From positions 1 to 40,573 of the forward strand of contig CAZQNA010000013.1 in NCBI GenBank assembly GCA_964594835.1: a stretch of DNA of 40,573 nt. Reading direction: 5' to 3'. Source of the DNA: an uncultured Nitrososphaerota archaeon. GTDB lineage: Archaea > Korarchaeota > Korarchaeia > Korarchaeales > Korarchaeaceae. The position numbers and the translations under genes were made by a program. A model generated the notes under the pieces. It saw only the letters and a list, made by a program, of their open reading frames with translations. It did no database searches and was not told the DNA's origin. The first letter of the stretch is position 1. Every line of letters begins with the position of its first letter. This document shows positions 3,787 through 35,760 of the stretch, piece by piece.

Positions 3787-3863
3787 GGGGCCGTGGTCTA
3801 GCTTGGTAGGATGCCGGCCTTGGGAGCCGGTGGTCGTGGGTTCGAATCCCACCGGCCCCACCA
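3787..3863 (+). tRNA. tRNA-Pro(TGG), no intron, CCA encoded
   Basis: GGGGCCG...CCGGC-CT-TGG-GA-GCCGG...GTGGG-TTCGAAT-CCCAC-CGGCCCC-ACCA. TATA element TTAAAT at 3758-3763. Confidence 0.97.
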
Positions 3864-8270: not shown

Positions 8271-8347
8271 TGGAGCCCCGGGCGGGACTCGAACCCGCGA
8301 CCTGCCGCTTACGAGGCGGCCGCTCTGCCGAGCTGAGCTACCGGGGC
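8271..8347 (-). tRNA. tRNA-Thr(CGT), CCA encoded
   Basis: Reverse complement GCCCCGG...GCCGC-CT-CGT-AA-GCGGC...GCGGG-TTCGAGT-CCCGC-CCGGGGC-TCCA. Confidence 0.97.
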
Positions 8348-12067: not shown

Positions 12068-13462
12068 TCAGAGGGCAACCGCCACCTGGACGTCCATCAC
12101 GTTCGTGTGGGTGGGGCCGGTCAGTATCAGGTCCCCGAGCCTGCGGAAGAACTCGTACGAGTTGTTGTCCCTCAGGAAGTCGGAGGGCTTCATCCCCTCC
12201 CCCAGGGCCCTCTCGAGGGTCTGGCCGTCTGCCACGGCGCCGGCGGCGTCCGTGACGCCGTCTATCCCGTCGGTCCCTATCGACAGGAGGGCCACGCCCT
12301 CCAGGCCTGAGAGCTTCTCGACGGCCCCCAGCACCAGCTCCTGGTTCCTGCCCCCCCTCCCCTTGCCGGTGACCCTCACGGTCGTCTCTCCCCCGGACAC
12401 CACAGCCATCGGGGGTTCGGCTGGCACCCCCTGCCCCCTTGCCGCCTGGACGATGCTGGCCAGGACCCTCCCCACGTGCCTGGCCTCCCCCTCCACGAAG
12501 GAGCCGAGGATCACGACCCTCAGCCCCTGTCCAGACAGGGTCTCAGCCGCCTCGGCCACTGACCCGGAGTTCGACGCGACGATCAGGTTGTGGACGTCGT
12601 CGAACAGGTCGTCTCCGGGCTTCGGGGTCTCCGGCAGCTCACCCCGTAGCCCCCTCCTGAGCACGTCCACGACCGAGTCCGGCATCTCTCCCAGGAGGTC
12701 GTACTTCTCCAGCACCTCCCACGCGTCCCCGAAGGTCGTGGGGTCGGGCGCGGTGGGGCCGGAGGCTATGGTGTCGACCGGGTCCCCCACCACGTCGGAG
12801 ACTATCAGGCTCACCACCGTCGCCGGCCTGGCAGCCCTGGCCAGCTGCCCCCCCTTGACCCTGGAGACGTGCTTCCTGACGGCGTTGATCTCCTGTATCG
12901 TCGCCCCCGACTTGATCAGGACGTCGTTCATTCTCCTCAGGTCTTCGAGGGTGATGCCCCTCTGCGGGAGCTCCATGAGGGCCGATCCGCCGCCGGAGAT
13001 CAGGGCGAACACCACGTCACCCTCTCCCGCCCTCTCGGCCAGCTCGAGTATCCTCCTGGTCCCCTCAATCGTCCCCTCGTCGGGGATCGGGTGCCCCGCC
13101 GGGTGGGCGGCGATCGACCGGAGGGAGAACTCCCCCTCCGTGCCCCTGAGGACGTTCACGGAGCCGGCCCGGATCGCGCCGCCGAGCAGCCCCTCGAGGG
13201 CCTCTGCCATCCTCCCGGTGGCCTTCCCCGCCCCCACGACGTACGCCCCGCCGGACAGTCCCACCCGAACCCCTCCCACCTCTGCGTACCCGGGGCCGAC
13301 CGAGAGGGACCTGCCCATGGCCACCATGGGATCAGCCGCCCTGACGGCCGCCTCTGCGGCGGCCAGGGCGAGCCTCCTGGCCCTCCTGTCCTCCTCGGTC
13401 CTCCCGTTGCCCACGAGCGACTCGAGGTTCCTGACGATGACCCCCCTCCCTACGCCTCCCAA
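12068..13462 (-). CDS. Glycerate 2-kinase (MOFRL/GckA family)
   Basis: GAGKA, HPIPD, LISGGGSAL, RKHVSRVKGG, SDVVGD...IASGPT, GGETTV, GGRNQE, GTDGIDG and TGPTHTNVMD. Confidence 0.95.
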   Translation of the reverse strand: MGGVGRGVIVRNLESLVGNGRTEEDRRARRLALAAAEAAVRAADPMVAMGRSLSVGPGYAEVGGVRVGLSGGAYVVGAGKATGRMAEALEGLLGGAIRAGSVNVLRGTEGEFSLRSIAAHPAGHPIPDEGTIEGTRRILELAERAGEGDVVFALISGGGSALMELPQRGITLEDLRRMNDVLIKSGATIQEINAVRKHVSRVKGGQLARAARPATVVSLIVSDVVGDPVDTIASGPTAPDPTTFGDAWEVLEKYDLLGEMPDSVVDVLRRGLRGELPETPKPGDDLFDDVHNLIVASNSGSVAEAAETLSGQGLRVVILGSFVEGEARHVGRVLASIVQAARGQGVPAEPPMAVVSGGETTVRVTGKGRGGRNQELVLGAVEKLSGLEGVALLSIGTDGIDGVTDAAGAVADGQTLERALGEGMKPSDFLRDNNSYEFFRRLGDLILTGPTHTNVMDVQVAVAL

Positions 13463-14721
13463 GGCTCCCTCCTCCCGACCTCTCCGTAGTCCGGGCCCAG
13501 CCTGACGTGGCCGAGTTCTATCCTGTCCGGGATCCCATAATACTTCGTCCTAACCCTCGCGACACCCCCCTCCAGGTCCAGCTCCTCCAGGACGCCCACC
13601 GCGGAGCACAGGCCGTCGGGGTCCAAGAGGCCGACGTAGAGCCCCCTTAGGCCTTCCCTCGTGGTGTACCTGACCTCCTTCCCCGTGAGCTCGGCCATAG
13701 CCCTGACGGCCCCCGGGTTGGGCCTGCCTTCGCAGACCATGACGATCGCATCGGGGGCCTCCTCCAGGTGGAGGAGCCCGCACCCCAGGGTCCTGTCGAA
13801 GGCCTCAAGGGCGTCCGGCCTGGCCCTGCCGGACCCCAGGAAGGTCCCGACCAGCCCAACCTCCCCCAGGTCGTAGGAGGCGATCCTCGAGCCCTCGAGG
13901 TACCTGGCGTAGGCGCTCCTCCTTCCGAGCCTCCTGAGAGACCTGTACTTCTCGGAGGCGTAGGGGGGAGGGGACATGTCGATCACCCTCGCCCGGGAGG
14001 GGACAAGGCGCCTGAGGTGCTCCGCCTCCCCCTCCCTCTGGATCAGCGCGACCTTGGTCGGGGCCAGGGCCGCCAGCTTGAACCTCTTCAGGGCCCTGGC
14101 GGCCCCTCCCCTGACCATGCCCGTCGTGTTGACCAAGACCACATCGGCCCCCCTCTCGAGGGCCAGCCCGGCCAGCCTCGCGGATCCGACGACCATGGGG
14201 AGCAGGTGGCCTCTGGGGGTCACGTCTCCGACGAAGAAGAGGGCGTCTGGCTCGGCCAGCTTCGGGTGGACCGGCGGAGAGCTGGCCAGCAGGAGCCCTA
14301 TGGTCCCCGGCGGCCCCACGTCGGACTGTCCCACATCGGCGTCGACCAGGGCGACGGTCATCCCCCTGGCGGTCAGGCGGTTGAGGAGGAAGGCCAGGAG
14401 CCCGCTCTTACCCACGTCCACGCCGCCAAGGACCACGAACAGGTCCCCGGGCTCCATGGACCTGGCAACGCTTTCCCAGGAGTCCGGGACGACTCGGGGG
14501 ATTGGATCGACCCTGGCCGCCCCCTCCACGAGGACCCTCGACCTGCGGACGGCCCTGACCAGCAGCGGGACGTCGGGCGAGTCGACCCTGACCTCGGCCG
14601 CGGGGGCGCCCCAGACCTCGACCTCACCGTCGAGCGCCGAGAGCCCGACCGGCCCGTGAACCACGAACCCCTGGCCGGGATCTAGCGTGACTTCTGTGGC
14701 TCCCTCGTCGCCGGAGGCCAT
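13450..14721 (-). CDS. Clp1/Grc3-family polynucleotide 5'-hydroxyl kinase
   Basis: P-loop GGVDVGKS, DADVGQSDVGPPG, NTTG and the RRLGRR lid motif. Confidence 0.88.
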   Translation of the reverse strand: MASGDEGATEVTLDPGQGFVVHGPVGLSALDGEVEVWGAPAAEVRVDSPDVPLLVRAVRRSRVLVEGAARVDPIPRVVPDSWESVARSMEPGDLFVVLGGVDVGKSGLLAFLLNRLTARGMTVALVDADVGQSDVGPPGTIGLLLASSPPVHPKLAEPDALFFVGDVTPRGHLLPMVVGSARLAGLALERGADVVLVNTTGMVRGGAARALKRFKLAALAPTKVALIQREGEAEHLRRLVPSRARVIDMSPPPYASEKYRSLRRLGRRSAYARYLEGSRIASYDLGEVGLVGTFLGSGRARPDALEAFDRTLGCGLLHLEEAPDAIVMVCEGRPNPGAVRAMAELTGKEVRYTTREGLRGLYVGLLDPDGLCSAVGVLEELDLEGGVARVRTKYYGIPDRIELGHVRLGPDYGEVGRREPWEA

Positions 14722-14738
14722 CCGAGGCTCCCGCCGCA

Positions 14739-14757
14739 GAAACCATTAAGGGGTTTC
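14739..14757. promoter_or_regulatory. Symmetric bidirectional BRE-TATA shared by the clp1 and RuBisCO-like genes
   Basis: GAAACC-ATTAAGG-GGTTTC. It lies about 26-28 nt from both ATGs (14721 and 14775), consistent with two leaderless transcripts. Confidence 0.65.
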
Positions 14758-14774
14758 CCGGGAGCGGCCGGGAG

Positions 14775-15905
14775 ATGCCGAGTCCTTCCGATGTGGTGGC
14801 CGAGATAGCCCTGGAGGACCCAGGCGCCGCCGACGCGGCCTTGAGGGCGCTGAACTCGGAGTTCAGGGGGCTGGGAGAGCCGACCCCTCGGGTCGCGAGG
14901 GGAGAAGTCGAGGGCGCTCTGGTGGTCGAGATACCCGTGGACATCCTGGACCCGGCCTCGCCAGCCACTCACCTGGCCCAGGTGCTCAGGTGGATCGTCG
15001 GGGCCGTCCCCGCCAGGGCGACGGTCTCCAGGCTGTCGCTCCCCGGTGAGCCCTTCAGGGGTCCGAGGCTGGGCCTGAGGGACGTGCGGAGGCACACCGG
15101 CATCAGGGGCCCGCTGCTGGGGGTCGTGATAAGGGCGGACAGCAGGGAACCCTTCGACCTGGCCAAGAGGTTCTACGAGCTCGCGTCAGCCGGGGCCGAC
15201 CTGGGGCTGGAGCCCGAGGTCCTGACCGACCACCCGGCCTCCCCCATATCGGCCAGGGCGTCGCATGCCGCGGACATGGTTGACAGGGTGAAGGAGGAGA
15301 CCGGCAGGAGGCCCATCTACGTGGTGTCCGTCGAGGCCGACGCCTCCTCTCTGTTGGACAGGGTCCAGGAGGTCGCCGACGCGGGCCTCCCGTTCGTGGC
15401 GCTGGGGGCATCCAGCCTGGGCAGCGTGGAGGCCGTGGCCGCCTCGGACCTCAAGGTGGGCGTCTACGCGAGAGGGGGGCCGGGGCACCCATCCATGGGC
15501 TGGCTCTCCCCGGGGGCGTGCGCGGCCCTCCTCAGGTCGGCCGGGGCGGGCCTCGTTGAGAGGCCCTCGGCCGGCTCCATCCCCCGGTCCGACATAGAGG
15601 AGGCTGACTCAGCCCTCCTGTCTGAGGCCGAGGGGCTGGCGAGGGCCATGCCGGCGGCGAGGGGCGGCCTCCACCCAGGGTCCGTGGAGGCGAACGTCTC
15701 CCTCTTCGGCGTGGACCAGGCGCTGGTGTTCGACGAGGGGGTGTACGACCACCCCTGGGGGTTCAAGAGCGGTGTCTCGGCCGCCAGGGCGGCCATAGAC
15801 GCCGCCCTTAGGGGGGAGGGGTTCTACGAGGTCGTCGAGGCGAGCGAGGAGATAAGGGCCGCCGTGGACCGCTGGGGCTACCTCGCCCCAGACGCGGTCC
15901 GCTGA
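14775..15905 (+). CDS. RuBisCO large-subunit homologue (form III-like) with a degenerate active site
   Basis: FRGPRLG, PLLG, EETG, GGLHPG, HPWG and AVDRWG are RuBisCO scaffold motifs. The KPK, KDDE and HxHR motifs are replaced (see findings). Confidence 0.85.
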   Translation: MPSPSDVVAEIALEDPGAADAALRALNSEFRGLGEPTPRVARGEVEGALVVEIPVDILDPASPATHLAQVLRWIVGAVPARATVSRLSLPGEPFRGPRLGLRDVRRHTGIRGPLLGVVIRADSREPFDLAKRFYELASAGADLGLEPEVLTDHPASPISARASHAADMVDRVKEETGRRPIYVVSVEADASSLLDRVQEVADAGLPFVALGASSLGSVEAVAASDLKVGVYARGGPGHPSMGWLSPGACAALLRSAGAGLVERPSAGSIPRSDIEEADSALLSEAEGLARAMPAARGGLHPGSVEANVSLFGVDQALVFDEGVYDHPWGFKSGVSAARAAIDAALRGEGFYEVVEASEEIRAAVDRWGYLAPDAVR

Positions 15906-15926: not shown

Positions 15927-17762
<1,836 letters not shown>

Positions 17763-17778
<16 letters not shown>

Positions 17779-19043
17779 CGCCAGCCCTCCATGGTAGACC
17801 AGTCCCAGGAGACCCCCTCCGGCAGGAACAGTCCGTAGACCACGGCCCCCCTCCACACGGAGAACTGGGGCTCCCTGACCACCCTGGGCTGGGTCTCGAT
17901 CCCCATGTCCCTGAGCATCCTCGCAAGCTTCGTGGGGCTGTCCACGGCCACGCCCTCGAGCCCCGCGGGCACAGTCCAGCTGAAGGCGCCGCCCGAGAGT
18001 ATCACATTCCTCAGGAGCGTCGACTGGATCTCGACTGGCGTCCGGGAGACCGCCTCCCTTATGGCCTCGGCCAGCGAGACCTTGCCAGGTATGACCCTGC
18101 CGCCAACGACGGTGTCTCTCGGGCCGGGGAAGCCCCTGGAGTAGTAGCTCTCGAAGATCTCGTGCCCCGGGTTGAAGTAGAACTCGCCGATGAGGAACCT
18201 CTGCCACGCCTTGTCCCCCATGTCCACCTCAACGGTCGTCCCTGGTATCCTGAACTTGGAGGTCAGGGCCGCCTGGTGCTCCCTGGCCCAGGAGATGGCG
18301 GAGTTGAGGTCGAGGGGGACGAGGCCCGCCATCTCCTTGAACATCCTGACGAACTTGTCCTCCCTGGCCAGCTCCGGGTAGCCGAGGTCCTTCAGGATCT
18401 GCCTGGCTATAGCGTCGGAATCGGACCCTCCCCTGTTCAGCGGTATCACGGCCCCTCGGATCACGTCTCGGCTTATGGGGGTGATCTGGGTGTTTCCGTG
18501 CCCGCCCTCCAGGACCACGCAGGTCGTCGCCTTCTCGGCGATCGCCACGGCCAGAGGCTGCGGTATTATGGTCATCGCCCTGACGAGGGTCTTCCCCTCC
18601 TCGGAGTTCACCCGCTCGTGGATCTCGAAGAGCCTCTCGTACATGTACGTGGGTGCCTGCGCGGCGAGGGCGGCGACGACGTAGAAGCCCGTGAACCTGC
18701 CGCCAAGGGGGCTCTGCTGGCCGGGGTAGTGCTTCAGGAGGGCGTACCTCGTCAGCTCCTTCACGACCTTCCATCCCCTCTCGTCGTCCCTGGGGACGAC
18801 GCCGTTCCTCATGGGGTAGTACAGCCTCTCGAGGTCCTCTCGGGACTCAAGGTACTCCGACACCTCCGGGCCCACGACGACCTCCCTGGGCTGTATCCCC
18901 CTTATCTCGGCCACCACCTTCGACATCTTCGGGAAGTAGCCCCTGTTCTCGACCACCTCCGGGTACTTCCCGATCCAGAGGGGGCCGAACTTGAAGTAGG
19001 AGGTCCCGTAGTCCATGCCGAAGACGGGCCTGCTCTCAGCCAT
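17763..19043 (-). CDS. Crenactin (archaeal actin)
   Basis: FGMDYGTSYFKFGP (phosphate 1), YPMRNG...W.V.KEL.RY, IIPQPLAVAIAE, EGGHGNTQI.PI (phosphate 2), ILSGGAF (adenosine) and PQFSVWRG all match crenactin as I recall it. Confidence 0.92.
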
Positions 19044-35672: not shown

Positions 35673-35760
35673 TGGTGCGGGGGGTGGGATTTGAACCCAC
35701 GAACCCCTGAGGGAGCGGATCTTAAGTCCGCCGCCTTTGACCTGGCTCGGCCACCCCCGC
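35673..35760 (-). tRNA. tRNA-Leu(TAA), long variable arm, CCA encoded
   Basis: Reverse complement GCGGGGG...GCGGA-CT-TAA-GA-TCCGC-(variable arm)-GTGGG-TTCAAAT-CCCAC-CCCCCGC-ACCA. Promoter AACCTATATAA at about 35795-35785. Confidence 0.96.

Follow-up and report, generated by a model that had tools for sequence, protein, structure and literature searches.

RuBisCO, the carboxylase/oxygenase of ribulose-1,5-bisphosphate, belongs to a superfamily that has repeatedly evolved new chemistries, including those of an enolase, an isomerase, and a decarboxylase, and to our knowledge every characterised member, whether a carboxylase or a RuBisCO-like protein (RLP), uses a site built from carbamylated Lys201 and Mg2+. 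The characterised RLP clades presumably keep the K201-D203-E204 site, as the RLP-type rows of our own residue tables do. The described systems closest to the gene reported here are form III RuBisCO, such as that of Thermococcus kodakarensis (1GEH, 3A12), and the non-carboxylating form IV RLPs, such as MtnW/YkrW of Geobacillus kaustophilus (2OEJ) and the RLP of Chlorobium tepidum (1YKW). The stretch of DNA analysed, referred to below as the window, is 40,573 nucleotides of a contig from an uncultured archaeon of the Korarchaeia. It carries at 14775..15905 on the forward strand an open reading frame (ORF) for a RuBisCO large-subunit paralogue of 376 aa without the carbamate/Mg2+ triad and without either phosphate site, and we call this gene and its relatives K-type. 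The ORF encodes a real paralogue that is maintained by selection, and we think it rather probable that its product neither carboxylates nor catalyses any other reaction and acts as a homodimer in binding, in regulation or as a structural protein, independently of the adenosine monophosphate (AMP) pathway.

The ORF starts with ATG and has no internal stop, and the description of it in the first-pass annotation of this DNA as full-length and intact is therefore accurate. When the product was scanned against Pfam, it matched the catalytic-domain model PF00016 with 52 bits (E 8e-14; cut-off 30.1), with good alignment only at residues 285-367, and did not match RuBisCO_large_N at E<=0.01. The significant match to the catalytic domain places the product in the RuBisCO superfamily. 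The best NCBIfam profile was rubisco_III (TIGR03326), which at 105 bits did not reach its cut-off of 497.45, and the models for 2,3-diketo-5-methylthiopentyl-1-phosphate (DK-MTP-1-P) enolase (mtnW; PRK09549, 95.9 against 409 bits; TIGR03332, 78.9 against 513.6 bits) and for OiaX (41.6 against 700 bits) also scored under their cut-offs. A protein atlas look-up returned generic RuBisCO clusters only (score 0.94). In a MAFFT alignment the product was 28% identical to the canonical RbcL encoded in the same genome, and all five scaffold motifs that had been reported as retained, FRGPRLG, EETG, GGLHPG, HPWG, and AVDRWG, were found in the alignment.

What sets the K-type protein apart is its active site. 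Residues are numbered here by spinach-type RuBisCO positions, from a MAFFT alignment with the genome's canonical form III RbcL that was repeated with more sequences. KPK (175-177) is replaced by R-A-D; K201-D-D-E204 by L-E-P-E, with L145, P147, and E148 of the ORF at the positions of K201, D203, and E204; H292-x-H294-R295 by Y-A-R-G; H327 by E (in VERPSAG), with K334 gone; S379 by R, with G380 and G381 retained; and G403-G404 by D-E. The ESSxGTW loop of the 60s is deleted, N123 is not retained, and the N-domain is about 45 residues shorter, with 92 residues ahead of the FRGP hinge compared to 137 in the canonical RbcL. Among the residues that contact the phosphates and the enediol of ribulose-1,5-bisphosphate (RuBP), including E60, T65, and N123 from the partner subunit, all are replaced or deleted except G380 and G381. 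The first-pass annotation had read these substitutions by eye at 175-177, 201-204, 292-295, 327/334, 379, and 403-404, together with the loss of the ESSTGTW and GN(123) motifs and the shortening of the N-domain, and the formal alignment agrees at each point; the residue tables likewise bear out its statement that catalytic and phosphate-binding residues are systematically replaced. It had also proposed that a formal alignment be checked for a retained K201 motif, and K201 and D203 are absent. Because these two residues are missing the carbamate/Mg2+ site is missing as well, and from its residues the K-type protein would be unable to bind or carboxylate RuBP.

The replacement of these residues is a property of the whole clade. 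K201 is replaced in all 27 K-type rows (by V, F, L, R, I, M or A) and so is D203, mostly by P, so that the carbamylatable K201 and the D203 of the Mg2+-ligand pair D203/E204 that define form III are missing from every member. H327 is E in 17 of the 27 rows, most of them have D-E, D-L or D-V in place of the G403-G404 loop, and position 202 is D or E in all 27, a feature that is also conserved family-wide. Since the loss of K201 and D203 is common to all 27 members, it is older than the split between two families of the order. The least-diverged member, P0006, retains E60, T65, W66, K175, K177, R295, and E204, and therefore the stripping of the site was stepwise with K201 and D203 the first to go. 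In 100 rows from outside the clade, a sample that was chosen by similarity to the K201-less query, K201 is kept in 84 and D203 in 91, in line with the statement of the first-pass annotation that characterised form IV RuBisCO-like proteins generally keep the K201 motif. A separate observation concerns the 16 rows of this sample in which K201 is missing (P0022, P0034, P0062, P0066, P0079, P0088, P0100, P0103, P0109, and others). P0022/P0034, P0062, P0079, P0100, and P0103 share the loss of K201 with the K-type proteins but sit in form III-like or RLP-like groups and not in the K-type clade. From these rows the carbamate lysine seems to have been lost several times in environmental archaeal sequences.

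A word-indexed protein search returned four relatives only (98, 75, 55, and 56% identity), and an exhaustive HMMER search of 1.84 billion representatives gave 468 proteins at E<=1e-3 and only five at E<=1e-30. Many of 61 related genomes that were searched have a second RuBisCO-type gene at 28-75% identity, and the K-type gene is also in public records titled 'Thermoproteota archaeon' and 'Candidatus Methanodesulfokora' (the latter in class Korarchaeia). Taken with the crenactin-like neighbour described below, these records point most probably to a korarchaeon as the source organism. A metagenome scan with alignment A2 gave at least 33 loci, and among the matches listed four look K-type (74, 54, 56, and 37% identity); a metagenome scan with P0006 as the query found no relative. 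In the sequences covered by these searches the K-type clade is found only in Korarchaeia-type genomes. One further match, P0009 (1731 aa), aligns to query residues 23-69 in 28 stretches, which probably reflects a low-complexity Ala/Glu-rich repeat instead of homology.

In a 127-row tree (LG+G4) the K-type proteins form one 27-row group with a support of 100 in the Shimodaira-Hasegawa-like approximate likelihood ratio test (SH-aLRT), apart from a 45-row form III group, which includes the genome's own RbcL, and from a 55-row RLP-like group. In a 62-row tree (LG+C20 with posterior mean site frequencies) they lie across a branch of length 0.53 with an SH-aLRT of 100, and the RLP-like group has 98. 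Both trees are unrooted, come from 'quick' searches and leave out forms I and II and the named form IV subclades, and the labels III and IV reflect tree position together with NCBIfam scans of ten representatives. Within these bounds the K-type proteins are outside the RLP group (SH-aLRT 98-100), and instead of falling in a characterised clade, an outcome that the first-pass annotation had asked to be looked for, they stand apart in both trees. None of the NCBIfam models reaches its cut-off for the K-type proteins scanned, and the least-diverged members P0006 and P0005 have the form III model as their best profile (283 and 185 bits). Two genomes were seen to have a third RuBisCO-family gene, G009:C8:151-1461 (L084, 437 aa) and G025:C9 (L085:1471-2706, 412 aa). 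The products keep K201-D203-E204 and only in part the RuBP-binding residues, and they are ordinary RLP-type proteins beside canonical and K-type copies.

When the K-type protein is compared to form III RuBisCO, represented by the T. kodakarensis enzyme and by the genome's own RbcL of 446 aa, it has the same two-domain fold (template modelling score normalised to the query, TMq, 0.83-0.84), its best NCBIfam profile, like that of P0006 and P0005, is the form III model, the scaffold motifs FxGPxxG, ETG, GG[LI]HPG, HPxG, and WG are common to both, its gene is associated with that of ribose-1,5-bisphosphate (R15P) isomerase, and the dimer modelled for it would be head-to-tail. It differs from form III by its 28% identity to the genome's own RbcL, by its rubisco_III score below cut-off, by its separate clade, and by the absence of K175, K177, K201, D203, H294, R295, H327, K334, S379, G403, G404, the 60s loop, and N123. 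With the form IV RLPs it shares the fold, a similar length and the lack of any long segment inserted between helix alpha6 and strand beta7, and 2OEJ is its best match by sequence in the PDB. However, the RLP-type sequences in our sample keep K201-D203-E204 and the K-type protein does not, its mtnW scores are under the cut-offs, and it is outside the RLP group in both trees. Judged by sequence, the K-type protein is neither a bona fide RuBisCO nor one of the characterised RuBisCO-like enzymes.

The fold is nevertheless that of RbcL. An AlphaFold2 model of the product, built from an 88-row family alignment, had a mean predicted local distance difference test score (pLDDT) of 96.5 and a predicted template modelling score of 0.93, and in it eight beta/alpha units come after a small N-domain of the form beta-alpha-beta-beta-alpha-beta. 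When the model was compared with the PDB by Foldseek, the matches were the type III RuBisCOs 8dht, 3kdo, 6hun, 3a12, and 1geh and the RLPs 2oej, 2zvi, 1ykw, and 3fk4, with E values of about 1e-27 to 1e-25 and TMq of 0.79-0.84 (0.82-0.84 for 8dht, 3kdo, 6hun, 2oej, and 2zvi); the closest solved relative by sequence was 2oej, the Geobacillus DK-MTP-1-P enolase (E 2e-26). In the model, then, the RbcL fold of the superfamily is retained as a shortened N-domain and an alpha/beta barrel. Two copies were modelled from a 22-row clade alignment in three runs with three controls. The interface score ipSAE was 0.94 in each of the three runs compared to 0.00 in the best of the controls, at least 99% of contacts agreed between runs and the partner pLDDT was 93; in calibration the mark set for ipSAE is reached by 20 of 30 proteins solved as same-chain pairs and by 1 of 23 solved as single chains, counts that apply here only approximately since our own alignment was used. 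The modelled interface brings the N-domain helix 56-83 against the barrel-mouth segments 120-124, 147-149, 233-234, and 321-325 of the partner, and the predicted geometry is the head-to-tail one of RuBisCO. Because RuBisCO dimers are among the solved structures, this result may reflect likeness and not binding.

Selection was examined by the ratio of nonsynonymous to synonymous substitution rates (dN/dS) by the method of Nei and Gojobori (NG86). Within g1, the genus of the window's organism (genera of the order are denoted g1 to g5 and its second family f2), the dN/dS of the K-type gene was 0.19-0.30 (dS 0.07-1.66), and elsewhere it was 0.07-0.11 in g2, 0.05 in g5, and 0.05-0.14 in g3 where dS was unsaturated. 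The comparators in g1 were the canonical RbcL (0.15-0.24), the CLP1-like protein (0.19-0.30), the DUF72 protein (0.15-0.19), the glycerate kinase (0.11-0.17), R15P isomerase (0.03-0.08), and crenactin (0.05-0.09). Since its dN/dS is well under 1, the K-type gene is under purifying selection; within g1 the constraint is somewhat relaxed, and in the same genome pairs the dN of the K-type gene is about three times that of the canonical RbcL (0.163 compared to 0.048-0.053). The frame is intact in every member that was read through by alignment, which is 16 genomes of six genera. Stops were flagged within some g3 matches, and in L016, the one that was checked, the match ends where the open frame ends and the flagged stop is therefore taken to be the natural terminator. 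The first-pass annotation had wanted to see whether orthologues exist and whether their dN/dS is near 1; they exist, and the values of 0.05-0.30 are far from 1.

If the old active site is gone, the question is which part of the protein is under constraint. In 13 lineage representatives the 13 ex-active-site columns had a mean entropy of 1.98 bits compared to 1.84 for all 370 columns, and 75% of random sets were as conserved or more. The columns of the old site are thus no more conserved than average and do not show the extra constraint that a catalytic site at this location should have. The residues G112, F133, G144, S156, R263, D278, N307, L317, D320, R346, and E348 each occur in 21 or more of the 27 K-type rows and seldom elsewhere. 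R263, the residue after the H327 position, is in 23 of the 27 rows and D320, at the G403 position, is in 22, and the two covary: R and D occur together in 22 rows, R and E in one, V and P in two (g4), and L and S in two (f2). This covariation suggests a salt bridge between Arg263 and Asp320 across the old phosphate site that would close or remodel the pocket. R346, G347, and E348 are in all 27 K-type rows, whereas outside the clade R is found in 10 and E in 8 of 100 rows, and they lie outside the predicted homodimer interface. Going by the secondary structure of the model they would cap helix alpha8 at its C-terminal end and lie on the barrel face opposite the old active site, and the invariant, clade-specific patch D342-x3-R346-G-E348 is the best candidate for a new functional surface.

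The same residues bear on another explanation, that the K-type protein is a neofunctionalised enzyme with a new site that needs neither metal nor carbamate, for example in a cluster of Arg, Glu, and Asp at the barrel mouth, and with a substrate other than a sugar bisphosphate. In g1 there is such a charged set (R120, D/E122, E146, R234, E262, R263, D320, and E321), seven of which, R120, E146, R234, E262, R263, D320, and E321, are conserved in all seven g1 rows. Purifying selection on the gene is strong, D/E202 is kept throughout the clade and R263 and D320 in most of it, and the superfamily has gained new chemistries more than once. However, the superfamily chemistries known to us all use the K201 carbamate and Mg2+ that are missing here, conservation of the ex-active-site columns does not exceed the average, and besides D/E202 and the R263-D320 pair there is no polar barrel-mouth residue that is common to the genera. 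With no clade-wide polar constellation at the barrel mouth, a new chemistry, which the first-pass annotation had allowed for, is not favoured, and we regard it as rather unlikely.

The surroundings of the gene may indicate where it came from. The R15P isomerase gene (e2b2) lies at 15927..16928 on the reverse strand (440 bits for TIGR00511, cut-off 314), convergent with the K-type ORF across a gap of 21 bp, so that the adjacency noted in the first-pass annotation stands. On the other side is a divergent gene for a CLP1-type P-loop protein (13450..14721, reverse strand; PF16575, 118.7 bits). Three further genes serve as synteny markers, a glycerate 2-kinase-like gene with DUF4147 and MOFRL domains (12068..13462, reverse strand; NCBIfam 256 bits against a cut-off of 550), a DUF72 gene (16999..17778, forward strand; PF01904, 144.7 bits) and a gene for a crenactin-like actin (17763..19043, reverse strand; NF053560, 603 bits, just below the cut-off of 630). 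The order glycerate-kinase-like (-), CLP1-like (-), K-type (+), R15P isomerase (-), DUF72 (+), and crenactin (-) is kept in full in g1 and g4, its part from K-type to crenactin is seen in the Methanodesulfokora-titled and g5 loci, the g2 loci have the same order minus DUF72, and the g3 loci have the K-type gene in the same position but lack the isomerase. The adjacency of K-type and e2b2 is kept in g1, g2, g4, g5, and f2, and that of CLP1-like and K-type in g1, g2, g3, g4, and the Methanodesulfokora-titled loci. Of 14 archaeal loci from outside the clade, four have e2b2 directly upstream of a canonical rbcL, and therefore the K-type gene plausibly sits in an ancestral rbcL slot. The glycerate 2-kinase-like gene is itself conserved two genes from the K-type and R15P isomerase genes, and from this position a link to 3-phosphoglycerate/glycerate metabolism is possible.

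The source genome (1.82 Mb in 24 contigs, 97% complete) has a canonical form III RbcL of 446 aa on contig C2 (PF00016 303 bits, rubisco_III 668 bits) with the motifs KPKVG, IKDDEN, HAHRAMH, SSGGLHPG, and GGGVIGHP, and two AMP phosphorylases over cut-off; a second, canonical rbcL with AMP phosphorylase, for which the first-pass annotation had suggested a search, is thus found elsewhere in the genome. The history of the canonical gene may have a peculiarity of its own. In g1 (loci L001, L038, L039, and L040) the canonical RbcL of G003 shares no more than 52-53% identity with those of G000, G001, and G004, and in the same genomes the neighbouring genes are 72-86% identical. Between G000 and G001 or G004 the dS of the canonical gene is 0.25-0.29, which is under the 0.44-0.91 of the genes around K-type. 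These values hint that the canonical rbcL was replaced or transferred within g1.

The presence of R15P isomerase, a canonical RbcL and AMP phosphorylases raises the possibility that the K-type protein is a non-catalytic subunit or regulator of RbcL or of the isomerase that tunes the AMP/pentose-bisphosphate pathway, much as the first-pass annotation had thought when it proposed that a true RbcL has it as its partner, in a structural or regulatory role. The K-type gene adjoins e2b2 in four genera and in f2, and since the interface of the RuBisCO type is kept in the model a heterodimer is sterically conceivable. The genes are, however, convergent and not co-transcribed, and the distribution of the K-type gene does not follow that of the pathway. 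In a sample of 38 genomes of the order, 21 of which are from g3, canonical form III was over cut-off in 15, R15P isomerase in 14, and a K-type match was found in 22. In g3, rubisco_III and e2b2 were over cut-off in none of the 21 genomes, many of which are 96-99% complete, and 10 of the 21 have a K-type match, of which four are confirmed by residues and by their place at the same locus and six are assigned from score and frame length. These g3 genes are retained under a dN/dS of 0.05-0.14. In five g3 genomes without a match (L046-L050) CLP1 directly adjoins DUF72 with a gap of about 170-190 bp, and the K-type gene has therefore been cleanly deleted; that about half of the genomes of this pathway-less genus have lost it is what a partner of the pathway would lead one to expect. 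In two g5 genomes (G008 and G011; L086 and L087), however, which have a canonical RbcL and the isomerase, CLP1 adjoins the R15P isomerase gene across gaps of about 600 and 310 bp and there is no K-type gene there. The K-type gene is thus retained where the pathway is absent and deleted where it is present, which speaks against a partnership with RbcL or the isomerase that is obligate, and its role would not depend on either. A partnership may still exist in g1 despite this distribution, but the proposal as it was first made is weakened by the retention in g3 and the deletions in g5, and we hold it to be quite improbable.

That the ORF is a decaying rbcL copy whose frame is open by chance in DNA with a GC of 0.71, where many long spurious ORFs arise, is hardly credible and a pseudogene was rejected, since, for all the faster evolution of the protein and the repeated loss of the gene, there are no frame disruptions, the dN/dS is 0.05-0.30, the start codon and an upstream box are conserved, and the AlphaFold2 model is very confident.

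We therefore return to the reading that the K-type protein is a non-catalytic homodimer. According to it the K-type gene would descend from an rbcL that once lay beside the R15P isomerase gene, and carboxylation would now be done by the separate canonical form III RbcL. The K-type protein itself would have become a homodimeric, non-catalytic protein of binding, structural or regulatory function in which the old phosphate pocket may be closed or remodelled by the covarying Arg263-Asp320 pair and the D342-x3-R346-G-E348 patch may be the new functional surface. Several results weigh against this. The K-type gene is dispensable, with 16 of the 38 genomes of the order having no match, and clean deletions at the locus are seen in five g3 and two g5 genomes. 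The dN/dS of 0.05-0.14 in genera other than g1 is as low as that of working enzymes, and the charged set of g1 could, from its conservation, be a genus-specific ligand-binding or catalytic site. The K-type branches are long in unrooted 'quick' trees without forms I and II and the named form IV subclades. Both the salt bridge and the placement of the RGE patch would follow from covariation and secondary structure and not from coordinates. Finally, the predicted interface positions show less conservation than all others (2.23 compared to 1.75 bits), a result that we count neither for nor against dimerisation, since the buried core is part of the set used for comparison.

A more far-reaching version of this reading can be put forward tentatively, and we would not be surprised if it proved too strong. 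It is that in the K-type clade the RuBisCO superfamily has its first lineage of true pseudoenzymes: the rbcL that originally stood in the archaeal nucleoside-salvage cluster of e2b2 and rbcL would have been displaced in function by a second form III RbcL and, ahead of the diversification of the Korarchaeia, exapted as a non-catalytic homodimer acting through its new and invariant D-x3-R-G-E surface as a sensor, a regulator or a structural protein. A lineage that is without the carbamate site and both phosphate sites and is still kept by purifying selection across an archaeal order would mean either that the RuBisCO fold can serve a non-catalytic purpose or that it can host a carbamate-free chemistry, and either outcome bears on how the RuBisCO family diversified. 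There is also a practical consequence, that counts of rbcL by Pfam or KEGG could score K-type genes as RuBisCO and so inflate the CO2-fixing or AMP-salvage capacity, and this risk is greatest in the genus where the K-type gene is the sole copy. In literature searches and in the accessible portions of 10.1101/386292, PMC12787533, PMC10667645, PMC4207490, and 10.64898/2026.09.21.753380 no K201-less korarchaeal RuBisCO clade is described, and those of the Korarchaeota papers (PMC12787533 and one other) mention only form III-b rbcL, deoA, and e2b2; the supplementary trees of PMC12787533 (figs S10 and S11) may include these genes.

The start of the gene has one more feature. The spacer of 53 bp between the K-type and CLP1-like genes (14722-14774) has a sole A/T-rich element, the near-palindromic box AAACCATTAAGGGGTTT at 14740-14756, the centre of which is 28 nt from the K-type ATG and 26 nt from the divergent CLP1-like ATG. 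In four of four orthologous spacers the consensus AAACCATTAAGGnGTTT has one variable base only, at a dS of 0.8-1.7 in the flanking genes. Because the box is near-palindromic and about equidistant from both start codons it looks like a shared bidirectional promoter, and by its position and conservation it is a candidate pair of TFB-recognition element and TATA box (BRE-TATA) for two leaderless transcripts. The first-pass annotation had given the ORF a BRE-TATA of its own, and while there is indeed a conserved A/T-rich box upstream of the ATG, it appears to be shared with the CLP1-like gene. A scan for bacterial-type promoters and terminators, the models of which are uninformative for an archaeon, gave no promoter-like site and one terminator-like site that is inside the ORF. 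The window also has four tRNA genes, Pro-CGG at 1556-1628, Pro-TGG at 3787-3863, Thr-CGT at 8271-8347, and Leu-TAA at 35673-35760.

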